From Candidatus Binatia bacterium (GTDB lineage: Bacteria; Desulfobacterota; Binatia; Bin18), in the NCBI GenBank assembly GCA_963664395.2, contig OY761159.2, forward strand, positions 1,088,001-1,152,000: a DNA stretch of 64,000 nt, read 5' to 3'. A model generated the notes under the pieces. It was given only the letters and a program-made list of their open reading frames with translations, ran no database searches and was not told where the DNA came from. Below are positions 37,861 through 60,531 of the stretch, piece by piece. Every line of letters starts with the position of its first letter. The first letter of the stretch is position 1. The position numbers were made by a program, and so were the translations under genes.

Positions 37861-38256
37861 CTAGAGTAGGTCTGCCCCAGCCTGAGCACAGTCTTCGTCC
37901 TGCTGACCAGTCCCCCCACCAACGCCGCACGCGCCCTCAAGTACCCCGTCGCGCATGATCGCAACGCCCCCCTGGCTGGCGATCATGTGGCCCCCTTCTG
38001 CCGCAACAATCCCACGTACAATCGGGCTGTCGGCCATTTGTTGGAGGGCGCCACTGGGCCGGGCAAAGCCGGCTGAAGCGACGGCCTTACCCTGGGAGCC
38101 GTAGACGCCGGCCCACAAGGCACCATCCATGCGGTTGAAAGCCACGAGGCGTCCCCCAGCGTCACACACGGCTACGCTGATCTTGATGTTGAGCTCTTGC
38201 GCCTTGGCTATGGCCCCGGCAGCAATGCGGTTCGCTTCTTCCAATGTCAGTACCAT
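37861..38256 (-). CDS. GlcG/HbpS heme-binding family protein
   Basis: VAVCDAGG, RMDGA, KA, GGV, GACGVGG...D..CA.AG. Confidence 0.9.
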   Translation of the reverse strand: MVLTLEEANRIAAGAIAKAQELNIKISVAVCDAGGRLVAFNRMDGALWAGVYGSQGKAVASAGFARPSGALQQMADSPIVRGIVAAEGGHMIASQGGVAIMRDGVLEGACGVGGGTGQQDEDCAQAGADLL

Positions 38257-38291
38257 ACGGCAAACCCTCCTCTCTCAATATAAAATTGAAC

Positions 38292-38316
38292 TTGCAAATT
38301 ATGGGCAATTTTGCAA
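38292..38316. promoter_or_regulatory. Inverted repeat in divergent promoter region (possible operator)
   Basis: TTGCAAA ttatgggcaat TTTGCAA. Confidence 0.4.
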
Positions 38317-38378
38317 ACGATGCAGATACAGAAGATAGCAGCGTTTGGCCGAGAAACCCACAGGAAAGGAGCAGTCAT

Positions 38379-39092
38379 ATGAGGGCAGAGAGTCTGGAAT
38401 ATAGAGATGGGGATGTCACGCTCAAGGGATTTGTGGCGCTGGATGACCAGAGCAATCATAAGCGACCCGGGATTCTGGTGATGCCCGAGGCATTTGGATT
38501 GGGCAAGCAGGCCAAGGACCGTGCCCTGCGACTGGCCTCACTCGGCTATGCCGCACTGGCGGGCGACCCGTATGGCAACGGCCTGGAGGTCAGCGATCTT
38601 CAGGAAGCGATTAAACACGCCGGAGCCATACGCGAGGATAACACCAAGTTTCGTCAGCGCATCCGCGCCGGACTCGACGCGCTGACGGCGCTGCCACAGG
38701 TGGACACTGACCGGCTTGTGGTCATGGGCTATTGTATGGGCGGCTCCTGTTCCCTGGAAATGGCGCGAGACGGCGCACCGCTCAAGGGCGTGGTCTCATT
38801 TCACGGCGCCCTGGAAACGCAGAGTCCGGCAGAGCCGGGCAAAGTACAAGCAAAGGTCCTGGTGTGCCACGGTGCGGATGACCCCTTTGTCCCGGTCGAA
38901 CATGTCACTGCCTTTGAAGAGGAGATGACCAAGGCCGGAGTTGACTGGCAGGTCATCAGCTATGGCGGCACGGTGCATAGCTTTACGAATCCGGAGGCCG
39001 ACGGCTCCATAGAAGGCATTTGCTACAATAAGCAGGCGGATGAGCGCTCGTGGCAGGCGATGCAGGCATTCTTTGACGAGATTTTCGCCTAG
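38379..39092 (+). CDS. Dienelactone hydrolase family protein
   Basis: E.FG, GYCMGG, SFHG, HGADD, HSFT. AAAGGAG RBS before ATG 38379. Confidence 0.93.
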   Translation: MRAESLEYRDGDVTLKGFVALDDQSNHKRPGILVMPEAFGLGKQAKDRALRLASLGYAALAGDPYGNGLEVSDLQEAIKHAGAIREDNTKFRQRIRAGLDALTALPQVDTDRLVVMGYCMGGSCSLEMARDGAPLKGVVSFHGALETQSPAEPGKVQAKVLVCHGADDPFVPVEHVTAFEEEMTKAGVDWQVISYGGTVHSFTNPEADGSIEGICYNKQADERSWQAMQAFFDEIFA

Positions 39093-39104: not shown

Positions 39105-39755
39105 CTAAATTTCATACACATCGACCTCTTCACGTCCAGCCATCCATTCCGTCTCGCGGTGCTGGACCTGGACGTGAAGGCGCGAGGCCGCAAGCTGTTC
39201 CAAAAATTTTTCGACACCCTCCCGTCGCGGGTCGCCAAAAAAAGCCCTGCCGCCCGTTTTAAGCGTGGCCGCCAAGAGCTTATACATCCAGCCGCCATCG
39301 ACCGCCTCGTACAGCACGTCAGCACCGACAAGGACATCGTACTGGCCAAGCTGCCGCACGCTGTTCTCATCCAGCCAGCAGCGGCACAGTTCCTGAACAC
39401 GGGGGACAGTATTGAGTTCACAATTGCGCTGGACCAGCCGCAGAGCCTCAGGAATATGGTCAAGCGCGGTGACCTGCGCGCCCAGCGAAGACAGCACCAC
39501 ACTCTCCAGCCCGACCCCACAGCCAATCACCAAGGCATGCTTCTCGCGCCACCACTCGGCCGGATAGGTCGAGGCAAGATACTGCGACAGGGCGAGGCTC
39601 GCCGGCCAGGCCAGATGCCAGTAGTCGTTCGCGCCACAGTACGGACAGCGGGAAAATTCGGGCTGGACGTTGCGGAGTTCAATCAGACGCACGACGAGCT
39701 GCGGCGTGACCCGATACGGGAGAATGCTTTCTTCGAAGAGTGGACGTTCGCTCAT
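39105..39755 (-). CDS. Methyltransf_16-like (protein-lysine-type) SAM methyltransferase with CPYC
   Basis: YW...WPAS..L, IGCGVGL, GADVLYE, DP.R. Confidence 0.8.
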   Translation of the reverse strand: MSERPLFEESILPYRVTPQLVVRLIELRNVQPEFSRCPYCGANDYWHLAWPASLALSQYLASTYPAEWWREKHALVIGCGVGLESVVLSSLGAQVTALDHIPEALRLVQRNCELNTVPRVQELCRCWLDENSVRQLGQYDVLVGADVLYEAVDGGWMYKLLAATLKTGGRAFFGDPRREGVEKFLEQLAASRLHVQVQHRETEWMAGREEVDVYEI

Positions 39756-39969
39756 ACCCCAGCGATCCTTTCACGCAGGACACGAAGACACAGTTCTGTC
39801 TTTCCCCCCTACGGCTCTCAGCTCCTCTCTATTATCAAGAAAAAGGCATGTAGTGAGAGATACGTTTTCACTTGACAGCTCGTATGACAGTGCATTAGGA
39901 CGGAGGCACGAGGAAATCTCTGGGAGTACACACCATTAAGTAAGAACGTTTGCCGTAAGGAGGGACACT

Positions 39970-40566
39970 ATGGCACGGCTCAGTCTCGTTGACCGCAAGC
40001 AGATGAGTCCACAGTATGCGCAACTGGTGGAACGGGTAAAGGACGCGGACGGCTATGTCAATTTTTTGAGCATGATGGCCCACCGCCAGGAGGTCGTTGA
40101 GCCCATGTGGCGAGCCTATGTTGACATGTTCGAGGGCGGCATCGTCGAGCCACCACTCAAGGAGCTGGTGCGTATCAAAATTGCCTATCTGAACGGGTGT
40201 TTATTTTGACAGGGCTTTCGCTATGCATCGGTGATGCAAAAAGGACTGACCGAAGAAAAAATCGCCCAACTCGAGGATTATGAAAACAGCCCCGCCTTTA
40301 CTCCCCGCGAGAAGAGCGCCCTCCGCTATGCCGAAAAGCTGGCCGTTGATGTCGACGCTATGGATAATGACGAGTTCTTTAGCGGGCTACAGCAACATTT
40401 TACCGACGCCGAGATCGTGGAGCTCGGCATTGTGATTGGATATGACATCGCCTTTGGTCGGCTGCTGCGCGTGTTTGACGCCGACCCGAAGGTGTGTGAA
40501 GTCCCGGAGCATCGGGAGGTTGGTATAGACGTTAGCCAATCCCCCGCTCTGTCCGCAGCAAAGTAG
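39970..40566 (+). CDS. AhpD/CMD-family protein with in-frame UGA (CxxU), probable selenoprotein, 198 aa
   Basis: ORFs 39970-40209 and 40231-40566 share one frame. Readthrough gives ELVRIKIAYLNGCLF-U-QGFRY...GLTEEKI...FTPREKSALRYAE...HFTDAEIVEL. Confidence 0.85.
40210..40248 (+). promoter_or_regulatory. Candidate bacterial SECIS element
   Basis: Upper stem TGCATC/GATGCA (40224-29/40233-38) with a GGT loop starting 21 nt after the UGA. Lower stem CAG..CTTT/AAAG..CTG. Confidence 0.65.
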
Positions 40567-40576
40567 TGAGTGCTAC

Positions 40577-40610
40577 GGGTGGGCCAGCAGACGGCCCACC
40601 CTCTTCTCTT
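40577..40610 (+). terminator. Rho-independent terminator
   Basis: gggtgggcc-7 nt loop-ggcccaccc followed by tcttctctt. Confidence 0.7.
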
Positions 40611-40655
40611 GGCTAGCTTACCGGAACGTCTCGGCGCTGTCGTCAGACAGCGCCC

Positions 40656-41885
40656 TCAGATCCGTTCGATAATCGTGGCAATGCCCATGCCGCCGCCGAT
40701 ACACATGGTGACCAGCCCGGTGGTTTTATCCTGACGTTCGAGTTCGTCGAGGACGGTTCCTATGAGCATGCTGCCGGTTGCGCCGAGCGGATGACCGAGA
40801 GCGATCGCCCCACCGTTGACGTTAACCGTGTCCGGGTCCATGTCACAGCCGCGCATGGTTTTCAGGGGGACAACCGCAAACGCCTCGTTGATCTCAATCA
40901 GGTCAATATCAGTGATTGTCATACCGGCTTTCTTGAGCACCTTTTTGGTAGCCGGAACCGGTGCGGTCAACATAATAATAGGCTCATCCCCCGCGGTTGC
41001 GGTGGCGACAATCCGAGCGCGCGGTTTCATACCGTGGCTGCGGGCATACTCCGGAGAGGTAAGCAGCAGGGCTCCCGCACCGTCAACGATGCCTGAAGAA
41101 TTGCCGGCGTGATGGACATGGTTGATCTCTTGCACATCCGTGTAGCGTGACAGCGCCTTTTCGTCGAAACTCAGCGTGTCGCCCTTTTGGACATACTTTC
41201 CCAGTTCCGCAAAGGAAGGGGGCAGTTGGCCAAGCCCTTCAAGCGTCGTGCCTGGTCGCGGGTATTCATCGTGTTCGAGGATCACGTTGCCTTCAGCATC
41301 GCGCACGGGGATCAGGCTCTTTTTCAGACGGCCCTCTTTGTGAGCACGGGCATAGCGCTGCTGGCTCGACAGCGCGAATGTGTCACAATCTTCGCGGCCA
41401 AACCCCTCTCGGGTGGCAATCAAATCACCTGAGATGCCTTGCTGTACAAGCGGATGGAGTTGGCGCAGATGGCGATTATGGCCGTCGATCCCACCCCGGT
41501 CCGCATTCATCGGCACGCGGGACATGGACTCCACACCACCGGCAACCACCACGTCCTGCTCGCCGGACTTGATGCCCATAGCCGCAAAATTCACCGCCTG
41601 CTGTCCTGAGCCGCAGAAACGGTTAATCGTGACACCCGTCGAATCGTTCGGCCACTCGGCTGCCAGCACAGACATCCGGGCGATGCACATCGCCTGTTCA
41701 CCATACGCAGTCACACAGCCCACCACCACGTCTTCAACGTCAAGCGGGTCCAAGTGGTTCCGTTCTTTTGTGGCATTCAGGACTTGCGCCATAAGCTCCT
41801 GGGGATGGAGTCCTGCCAGCGCCCCGTCTTTCTTGCCCCGCCCACGCGGGGTGCGAACTGCATCAATAATCCAGGCTTCGCCCAT
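40656..41885 (-). CDS. Acetyl-CoA C-acyltransferase (thiolase)
   Basis: [49 protein letters not shown]. Confidence 0.96.
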
Positions 41886-41980
41886 GACTTCCTCCATCGT
41901 TTCCTATCAGACAACTCAGTTGGGAATTCTATAGCGGTGGCCGCGGGCGAGAGGGGATTGTCCGTGTTTCAGCGACATCC

Positions 41981-59021: not shown

Positions 59022-60074
59022 CTAATAATGCGCAATAATCTCCCGCGCAAACTCGACAATGCTCTCCTCAACATAGCCCCACGGCGGAGAAATCACCATT
59101 TGGGTCAGACCGACGGCTTCTAATTCTTTGAGGCGCGTAATCACTTCCTCTCGGGTGCCGGTCACACTCATGGCTCGAATCACCTCCGGGGTAATGAACT
59201 CTTCTTCGCCCGGATGCAAAAACCGTGAGTGGGTCACATGAATGTCATCCCAGCGTTCGTCCAGATACGCTCGGTATCGCGGAGTGAGGAACGGCTCAAA
59301 ATAGGCGGGCGCGTTCTTGCCCTGCCGCACGACTTCATACGCATAGTGCAGCCCAACGGCAATACGTGGCCCGACTCGGCTGAGGACCCGAGGACTATTG
59401 AGCGTTTCGCCCGGACGCATTACGCATGCGACGCCAACGGTGACGACCGGATAATCTTTGTGTTGCCCCGATGCTTGCTGCCTGCCCTTGGCCGCTTTGT
59501 CTAATGTCGCCGTCAGTGCGTCGGGGGTAATCGTACTCACCGTAATCAACCCATCACCGAGTTCCCCAGCCAAGGCCAGCGCTTTGGGATAGGAAGCGGC
59601 GAGATAAATCGGGACAGGATCGTTGACGTTAATATATCCGCGCTCGCGGTCGAGGAAACGGATCTGACTGTGACGGCCGCGTTCATGGTATTCAACCGCT
59701 TCGCCGCGCAGCAGTTTTCGACACACATCGATAGTATGCCGGAATGTATCCAAGCGGACGGGCGGCATATTCATAGCGCGCCAGGCAGTGTGGCCGGTCC
59801 CCAGACCCAGGATGGTCCGGCCTGGCGCGAGTTGGTTCACCGTGGCGATCGAGTGGGCAATGACCGGGGCAATACGGGTGCCGGCAATCGCCACCGCTGT
59901 CCCAAGCTGGATGGTGCTCGTATGCTCAGCCGCCAGGGCCATACACGCATACACGTCCGAGGCCAGCATCTGGGTATCGACAAACCACGCGGTGGTGAAG
60001 CCCATTTGTTCGGCCAGCACGGCATGCTTCCAACTGTTTTGAATATGCGACTGAAAACTCACACCAAAGTTCAT
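59022..60074 (-). CDS. LLM-class (Mer-like) oxidoreductase
   Basis: AEQMGF, D.Q, TSTIQLGTAV, APGRTILGLGTG, PIYLAA, AGELGDG. Confidence 0.92.
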   Translation of the reverse strand: MNFGVSFQSHIQNSWKHAVLAEQMGFTTAWFVDTQMLASDVYACMALAAEHTSTIQLGTAVAIAGTRIAPVIAHSIATVNQLAPGRTILGLGTGHTAWRAMNMPPVRLDTFRHTIDVCRKLLRGEAVEYHERGRHSQIRFLDRERGYINVNDPVPIYLAASYPKALALAGELGDGLITVSTITPDALTATLDKAAKGRQQASGQHKDYPVVTVGVACVMRPGETLNSPRVLSRVGPRIAVGLHYAYEVVRQGKNAPAYFEPFLTPRYRAYLDERWDDIHVTHSRFLHPGEEEFITPEVIRAMSVTGTREEVITRLKELEAVGLTQMVISPPWGYVEESIVEFAREIIAHY

Positions 60075-60083
60075 GGCAGGTCC

Positions 60084-60434
60084 TTACCCAATCTCGACGT
60101 CTTCGACAATAAACATTCGAGAGCTGGCAAAGTCCACAAATTTTGCCTCATCCGGGCGAATGATTTCGAGATAGCGCGGCTGGGTAAACGCCTTGCCAAT
60201 ATCCTCCACGCTGTCAAACCACAGCTCGGCGATTCCATCGAACGGGGCATCGTCTGAGGGTGGGAACCCCGGCACGGGAGTGCTGACCGTGTGGCCCTGG
60301 ACATATTTTCGGACGTACTGCCAGAACTCCGGCACACTTCTGACCAGCGGACCGTGATTGTTTTTCCAATAGTCCTGAAACTCAACCGTTGTCATCCCAG
60401 CCTTGCGGCGTGCACACCCAACAAATTTGACCAT
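60084..60434 (-). CDS. EthD family protein
   Basis: RKAGMT..EF..YW...HGPL, YVQ.H, FDGIAELWFDS, DE..F.D. Confidence 0.9.
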   Translation of the reverse strand: MVKFVGCARRKAGMTTVEFQDYWKNNHGPLVRSVPEFWQYVRKYVQGHTVSTPVPGFPPSDDAPFDGIAELWFDSVEDIGKAFTQPRYLEIIRPDEAKFVDFASSRMFIVEDVEIG

Positions 60435-60531
60435 GCGTTACCCTCCTCCATAAAAAATCAGACAAAAATAATCGTTGGCATGGTCCGGTAAATCCTTGTA
60501 AGAGTCAAGCTGTGATCCCGAAGGAGGATGT

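Follow-up and report, generated by a model that had tools for sequence, protein, structure and literature searches.

The window considered here, a stretch of 64,000 nucleotides (nt) from the 5.04-Mb genome of a Candidatus Binatia bacterium (contig C1, C1:1088001-1152000), carries between its positions 39970 and 40566 what we believe to be a single gene, one that encodes a 198-residue CMD/AhpD-like, YciW-related selenoprotein in which an in-frame TGA at codon 80 is read as selenocysteine (Sec; U in peptide sequences) by means of a selenocysteine insertion sequence (SECIS) immediately downstream. We put the probability of this reading at about 0.93. An earlier note on this DNA, made from its letters, had pointed to a hidden selenoprotein gene at this place, and its central proposal, a Sec enzyme divided in two by gene callers, is now supported by conservation of the codon, by a covarying hairpin and by the Sec machinery of the genome.

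On the plus strand, 39970-40566 reads as one frame of 198 codons followed by a TAG stop (40564-40566), and its sole internal stop is the TGA at 40207-40209, codon 80, which lies in the peptide IAYLNGC77-L-F-U80-QGFRY. The idea that two apparent open reading frames (ORFs) are one frame broken only by this TGA is therefore correct as first proposed, even though a plain ORF listing divides the gene into 39970..40209 (79 residues) and 40231..40566 (111 residues, with a GTG start). The Pfam profile for CMD proteins, PF02627, matches residues 55-122, straight across the TGA, at 42 bits against a gathering cut-off of 23, and takes in profile positions 16-83 of 84. The nearest full-length relatives in a collection of 5.8 billion proteins are actinobacterial CMD proteins, about 40% identical; these Cys homologs read NGCLFCQDWR, and in a 20-sequence alignment all six of them have Cys at the U80 column, in agreement with the earlier suggestion that the TGA occupies the place of the second Cys of a CxxC motif. 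The unit is also bracketed as had been described, by a ribosome-binding site, GGAGG at 39959-39963, and by a terminator-like stem-loop at 40577-40601. The upstream AGGAGGG is kept in 15/15 genus orthologs; terminator-like sites number one in 39700-40700 against a shuffle mean of 0.8, so that this element alone is only a consensus match.

Conservation of the TGA was followed through 41 genomes, the window's own and 40 relatives, with one further ortholog (L056) added from a species-genome collection. An ortholog 88-99% identical, with exactly one in-frame TGA, is present in fifteen genomes of the genus, the window's own among them, and the added ortholog stands at 80% identity; in 16/16 orthologs the TGA is at codon 80 within an identical NGCLFUQGFRY. 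Synonymous divergence (dS) from the window gene reaches 1.04 (L028) and 1.69 (L056). In eight pairwise comparisons the ratio of nonsynonymous to synonymous divergence (dN/dS) is 0.02-0.08 upstream of the TGA and 0 to 0.10 downstream of it, and third codon positions account for 34 of the 51 variable sites upstream and 78 of the 117 downstream. Many CMD paralog families carry TGA at the same column. The earlier note had suggested a search for homologs with Cys or TGA at this position, and both are found there, TGA throughout the orthologs and Cys in the actinobacterial proteins.

One genus genome, G019, holds a decayed copy of the gene (L031/L057, at C1:6024830-6025427 of that genome) in which TGG replaces the Sec codon (CLFWQGFRL) and which also holds two other in-frame TGAs, a TAG and a frameshift; the gene can therefore be lost. 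As for the labels under which the gene is filed, 14 of the 16 near-identical loci are titled Candidatus Binatia or Binatota, the other two being titled Thermodesulfobacteriota and "uncultured Enterobacteriaceae"; ortholog L055 (88% identical), filed as "uncultured Enterobacteriaceae bacterium", is probably from a mislabelled bin. To judge by the titles, metagenome assemblies are the sole source of sequence for this organism.

The stem of the hairpin begins 14 nt after the TGA, and the first base of its loop, a G, lies 21 nt past the A of the TGA; the 6-bp stem, the G-first loop and their distance from the codon are thus as the earlier note had described them, at 40224-40238. We compared the TGA and the 48 nt that follow it at 64 CxxU CMD-family loci from Binatia-class genomes, which gave 58 distinct sequences, and because MAFFT placed no gaps in any of the 58, the rows are held in register by their codons and not by structure. 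The hairpin was found at all 58 distinct homologous TGA sites examined. In the register of the window gene (43 rows, 38 of them distinct) the stem joins columns 17-23 with columns 27-33; 93.6% of the cells in these seven pairs are paired, changes on both sides occur in 7/7 pairs, and 0/500 shuffles attain the observed pairing or covariation score, whereas sliding the 3' partner by 1-3 columns as a control left 31-56% of cells paired. The inner six pairs (columns 18-23/27-32, which correspond to 40224-40229/40233-40238) are paired in 100% of cells in the 38 distinct rows, and all six show compensatory change. A second register, represented by 11 sequences, has the hairpin 2 nt nearer the TGA, with 93.5% of cells paired and compensatory change in 5/7 pairs; the 4 leftover sequences, by reading of the alignment, form the stem with 4- or 5-nt loops (GGGG, GGUCR). 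The first loop base is G in 43/43 rows of the window register and in 11/11 of the second, and the figure legends of PMC1088965 mention the conserved apical-loop guanosine of bacterial SECIS elements. Pairing is kept across the hairpin even as the peptide that it encodes changes (YASVMQ, FASMMH, VALAKQ, FALARQ, YASARQ and others). As a base rate, hairpins under narrow criteria (6 bp, a loop of 3-5 nt beginning with G, and a stem start 11-15 nt after the TGA) follow 182 of 40000 TGA trinucleotides sampled in the genome itself (0.46%), and broad criteria raise this to 1.8%.

The genome also holds what would be needed to decode the codon. A search for selA, selB, selC and selD, which the earlier note had recommended, found all four: tRNA-Sec (selC) is called by ARAGORN, scores 66.7 bits in Rfam against a gathering score of 47 and directly adjoins selA (596 bits), while selB is matched over its full length (390 bits) and selD at 316 bits. 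Because TGA closes 953 of the 2640 stop-to-stop frames on contig C1 that span 300 codons or more, it is an ordinary stop in this organism and the code is not reassigned, as had been claimed. The selD gene lies outside the window, at G000:C1:4504791-4508708 (L010:1390-3657, minus strand; G000 is the window's own genome), and encodes a 755-residue fusion of a pyridine-nucleotide-disulfide oxidoreductase domain (Pyr_redox_2, 10-317) followed by AIRS/AIRS_C (451-745), with no in-frame stop. Some 35 kb upstream of the window (G000:C1:1053530-1053622; L058:2031-2123) lies a further ARAGORN call of 93 nt, "tRNA-Pyl (cta)", which is probably a false positive; as a second recoding system it is ruled out, for Rfam matches it to no tRNA at E <= 0.01 and ORFs overlap it on both strands, and PylS was not found in the genome, which is 95.9% complete.

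The protein itself aligns best, among NCBIfam models, with NF053654, "GroundWater_YciW", a YciW-related (seleno)protein, in a nearly end-to-end match (residues 1-167 to profile positions 1-170 of 179, E 3.8e-24). The E-x11-C-x-x-C signature is present as E65-x11-C77-L-F-U80. Of the 58 distinct Sec forms, 54 have a further Cys 95-105 residues after U, within a tail of C-x-[LIV]-P-like sequence, and this third Cys (the Cys176 column) is present in the Cys homologs and absent from the two paralogs of the same genome that have no CxxC (L038, L040); Cys176 may be a third redox residue or a ligand.

A number of observations weigh against the reading given above or narrow it. Insertion of Sec at residue 80 is inferred from sequence. 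Taken singly, the sequence does not fold significantly more stably than its shuffles (z -0.89 over 81 nt, z -1.23 over 44 nt), conservation does not extend to the lower helix of its minimum-energy fold (45.5% of cells paired), and an Rfam scan of 39800-40700 returned nothing at E <= 1; it is thus comparison, and not thermodynamics, that supports the hairpin. The shuffle control, for its part, overstates significance because the sequences are kin, a concern that the slid-partner control and the 100% pairing of the inner stem answer in part. With respect to family, NF053654 scores 85.4 bits against an equivalog cut-off of 310, TIGR01926 (peroxid_rel) 39.8 bits against 81.8, and TIGR00778 (AhpD core domain) 14.5 against 27.8, and because every NCBIfam model touched scores below its curated cut-off, any functional analogy is one of superfamily membership; the window protein is a divergent member of the CMD/AhpD-like superfamily and belongs to no curated equivalog. 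Finally, the residue at U+4 is Arg84 and the canonical His is absent. The earlier note had taken this lack of His as the mark of a non-canonical subfamily, and the observation itself stands; it is not specific to Sec, however. Among the 58 distinct Sec forms the position is R in 35, N in 9, V in 7, H in 5 and G in 2, and since the six Cys homologs of the alignment also carry Arg there, loss of the His is a feature of the clade and not a result of having Sec.

The public sequence record covers the gene in part. Runs that contain the gene stretch come from seven studies, and several of them are labelled sponge metagenome. Four public runs were compared, all as contigs, a form of data from which neither transcript ends nor strand nor expression level can be read. 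The contigs of the three covering runs give no other letter at the TGA codon. In two RNA-library runs, both from one study, contigs 39918/39920-40247 span the TGA with 0 differences, which is weak evidence of transcription because DNA can occur in such libraries. In all three covering runs the contigs break at 40218-40250, the hairpin region, where a 33-nt piece stands by itself at far greater depth, and no listed public-run piece spans the whole stretch; this break is likely an assembly-graph effect of a palindromic hairpin common to strains and paralogs, and not biology. Within the assembly, the small contigs C2-C14 (10-26 kb) carry 99%-identical copies of parts of C1, for example at C8:2-505, C2:24763 and C9:18535, and the copy of the window gene on C8 runs from residue 31 onward. 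Strain variation or duplication in assembly would seem to account for these copies, in keeping with the contamination estimate of 5.37%.

How else might the TGA be accounted for? It could be a true stop, in which case the 79-residue piece and the 111-residue piece that starts at GTG 40231 would cooperate as separate proteins and the hairpin would serve translational coupling or mRNA stability. ORF callers yield exactly these two pieces, an in-frame GTG does lie within the hairpin loop, and the ortholog group is represented in public protein sets solely by C-terminal pieces 108-116 residues long (8 clusters, P0002-P0009); but the break would fall inside the CxxC motif, the Cys homologs run unbroken through a Cys at the U column, and the seven codons from TGA to GTG (QGFRYAS) are identical in 16/16 orthologs and fall inside the aligned domain. 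No Shine-Dalgarno sequence stands ahead of 40231, and some paralogs in which both TGA and hairpin are kept lack a start codon there (as do L035-L037, with loop GGC). We consider a split gene very unlikely. Still harder to credit is a nonsense change in a CxxC gene, whether in a pseudogene or through an assembly or sequencing error: the decayed copy in G019 is a precedent for decay, but the TGA stands in 16/16 intact orthologs from independent assemblies whose synonymous divergence extends to saturation, the codons downstream of it evolve at a dN/dS of 0 to 0.10, and the TGA column recurs across many paralog families. The sequencing error that the earlier note had allowed for is excluded by the 16 independent assemblies and by the public-run contigs, which agree at this codon.

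Read-through of the UGA by something other than Sec-tRNA, be it a near-cognate Trp or Cys tRNA or a suppressor tRNA, with the hairpin merely stimulating, would leave the gene whole and change only the residue inserted. The case for selenium is, after all, built on sequence, and the "tRNA-Pyl (cta)" call elsewhere in the genome might seem to offer a suppressor; that call reads CUA and not UCA, however, and has the defects already described. Against read-through of this kind stand also the complete Sec machinery of the genome, the Cys of the homolog column, which is what Sec/Cys pairs predict, and the position and G-first loop of the hairpin, which fit a bacterial SECIS; we regard it as highly improbable. 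A different sort of alternative accepts the Sec and departs over what the protein is. The CMD selenoproteins of the Binatia may form an unrecognised clade, marked by E-x11-C-x-x-U, by a U+4 position that is mostly Arg and never requires His, by a C-x-[LIV]-P tail bearing a third Cys and by at least six paralogs per genome, and its members may use a Cys-Sec-Cys relay for a reaction other than that of AhpD. Reductive dehalogenation would be one such reaction: Bmp8 removes halogen by redox-thiol chemistry that has been likened to that of the selenoenzyme deiodinase, and the sponge habitat is rich in organohalogens. We think this improbable, if somewhat less so than the split gene or the non-Sec read-through.

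Decoding of the gene as a selenoprotein would proceed in the general bacterial manner. In the mRNA, the UGA at codon 80 would be followed, after 14 nt, by the 6-bp stem and its GGU loop, serving as the SECIS; SelB-GTP and Sec-tRNA(Sec) would bind the hairpin and deliver Sec at the UGA, and translation would run on to the TAG at 40564-40566. In M. tuberculosis AhpD, which carries the signature E-x11-C-x-x-C, it is the second Cys that acts as nucleophile, and the first resolves. By analogy, the redox centre of the window protein would be C77-L-F-U80, in which Sec at the second position would be the attacking nucleophile and Cys77 would resolve the mixed bond. The product is thus most likely, on this analogy, a selenol/thiol-based oxidoreductase of the hydroperoxide or disulfide reductase type. 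The positions of these elements, together with those of candidate selenoprotein genes elsewhere in the genome, are collected in the table.

Table. Features of the window gene (window coordinates) and further candidate selenoprotein genes of the same genome (G000:C1 coordinates).
Feature	Position	Strand	Basis
Single coding sequence, CMD/AhpD-like, predicted Sec at residue 80	39970-40566	+	Translation with TGA as U; Pfam CMD; dN/dS
Shine-Dalgarno GGAGG, 6 nt before ATG	39959-39963	+	Read directly in the sequence
Glu65 codon GAG, Glu of the E-x11-C-x-x-C/U signature	40162-40164	+	Invariant column, 20-sequence alignment
Cys77 codon TGT, first position of CxxU	40198-40200	+	Nearly invariant column, 20-sequence alignment
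TGA, predicted to be read as selenocysteine (U80)	40207-40209	+	TGA in 16/16 orthologs; Cys in 6/6 actinobacterial homologs
Arg84 codon CGC at U+4, His in canonical AhpD-type proteins	40219-40221	+	Translation, alignment
Putative SECIS apical hairpin: TGCATC / GGT / GATGCA	40224-40229 / 40230-40232 / 40233-40238	+	Codon-anchored alignment, covariation
Cys176 codon TGT, third conserved Cys, tail KVCEVPEH	40495-40497	+	Nearly invariant column, 20-sequence alignment
Intrinsic-terminator-like stem-loop (40577-40601) with T-rich tail	40577-40611	+	9 pairs, 8 of them G-C
Candidate CMD gene (CHYU), L100	G000:C1:550258-550908		TGA and G-first hairpin; passes TIGR01926 at 119.3 bits
Candidate rhodanese (TYUQGGIRA), L101	G000:C1:1210267-1211229		TGA and G-first hairpin
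Candidate DsbA-like thioredoxin-fold gene (YQUPYC), L103	G000:C1:422828-424213		TGA and G-first hairpin
Two candidate UGSC-family genes, L106 and L114	G000:C1:3355130-3355711, 3805989-3806549		TGA and G-first hairpin
Candidate GrdB/PrdB-like gene (VUPVC), L109	G000:C1:3753654-3754616		TGA and G-first hairpin; U three residues beyond the end of the profile match

Within the window, the immediate neighbours of the gene are a dienelactone hydrolase (38244-39092, plus strand), a methyltransferase (39105-39755, minus strand) and a thiolase (40656-41897, minus strand), none of them a peroxiredoxin. Beyond the window, the suspicion voiced in the earlier note that this gene belongs to a larger unannotated selenoproteome is borne out by candidates of two kinds. 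Protein search of the genome, in answer to its suggestion that CMD paralogs be scanned for in-frame TGA, found five CMD-type TGA genes, the window gene and four paralogs, along with a 99% duplicate on a small contig. A hairpin-guided scan (in-frame TGA, open and coding-like flanks, a perfect stem of at least 6 bp and a G-first loop), the yield of which is a lower bound, returned 43 candidates and recovered all five CMD genes. Twenty-one of its candidates were taken to Pfam, beyond which there are 15 other non-CMD candidates and 2 small-contig duplicates; 6/21 have a Pfam family at the TGA, and 15/21 show no family at E <= 0.001. In all, the genome has at least 11 candidate selenoprotein genes, at least 6 of them CMD-type. 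The scan also returned a candidate within the window (59505-60488, TGA at about 60255), which we set aside, as it has no Pfam family and its translation looks spurious.

The main value of these results lies in the annotation rescue of the window gene. In the 5.8-billion-protein collection its ortholog group appears as unnamed C-terminal fragments of 108-116 residues and nothing else, so that public protein sets lack its N-terminal half and with it the active site. At the same time, the 11 candidate genes and the SelD fusion suggest that Candidatus Binatia use selenocysteine fairly broadly; among the literature records and excerpts searched, no paper linked Binatota with a selenoprotein, and of the selenium-related mentions read there one stood in a reference list and the others were unrelated. 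Nothing is changed as to how Sec is decoded or as to which kinds of protein use it. All 11 candidates fall in selenoprotein families that the excerpted literature tables already contain, and this kind of selenoprotein has been known since 2005; neither a new decoding mechanism nor a new kind of protein is involved.

Comparison with known systems places the window protein at some distance from AhpD in the strict sense. It shares with M. tuberculosis AhpD the signature (E65-x11-C77-x-x-U80) and differs at +4, where His becomes Arg84, and the window gene differs from AhpD sensu stricto in having no ahpC or other peroxiredoxin gene among its three immediate neighbours. No M. tuberculosis AhpD chain appears by name among the 18 PDB matches of a family profile search, in which the closest solved relatives are PA0269 (2o4d, 2ijc), 7xw1 and Atu0492 (2gmy), with E values from 5.5e-27 to 2.5e-23 over query positions 36-166; more distant matches include chains named AhpD, and Bmp8. 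PA0269 has INGCAYC aligned to NGCLFU. Unlike the window protein, however, PA0269, 7xw1 and Atu0492 are Cys proteins of 145-165 residues with a CxxCxxxH motif (CAYCVNMH) and without the Cys-containing C-terminal tail, and their depositors named them hypothetical or merely CMD-family. The tetrabromopyrrole debrominase Bmp8 (6ohi, 6ohj) is likewise a CMD-family protein (E 1.8e-12, query 33-171), but it is much more distant than the PA0269-type proteins, and the likeness is one of profile match alone. To NF053654, the name of which implies Sec forms, the window protein aligns end to end, but as a relative and not a member; its paralogs, at 60-86 bits, are likewise relatives and not members.

The closest parallels are to be found among selenoproteins already known. 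AhpD-like (COG2128) and CMD-domain selenoproteins with a CxxU motif were predicted from Sargasso Sea data by Zhang, Fomenko and Gladyshev in 2005 (PMC1088965), and Table 2 of the 2008 Global Ocean Sampling (GOS) study (PMC2398784) counts AhpD-like/CMD CxxU selenoproteins in hundreds. The excerpted text of a 2026 review (PMC13188914) lists AhpD-like/CMD CxxU families with TIGR01926, PF02627, NF041047 and NF041238, and a 2026 database paper (PMC13326102) has the AhpD-like family as a browsing example; across the excerpted entries of the first three of these papers the families are AhpD-like 1 (COG2128), AhpD-like 2 (pfam02627), TIGR01926 and CMD-like PF02627, all of them CxxU. The selD fusion of this genome, too, resembles the Ndh-SelD fusions mentioned in the GOS paper (PMC2398784). 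The window protein differs from the known CxxU AhpD-like/CMD selenoproteins in scoring below the TIGR01926 cut-off, in its Arg at U+4 and in its conserved C-terminal Cys; with them it has in common the PF02627 domain, predicted Sec at the second redox position, homologs with Cys in its place, and a putative SECIS directly 3' of the codon.

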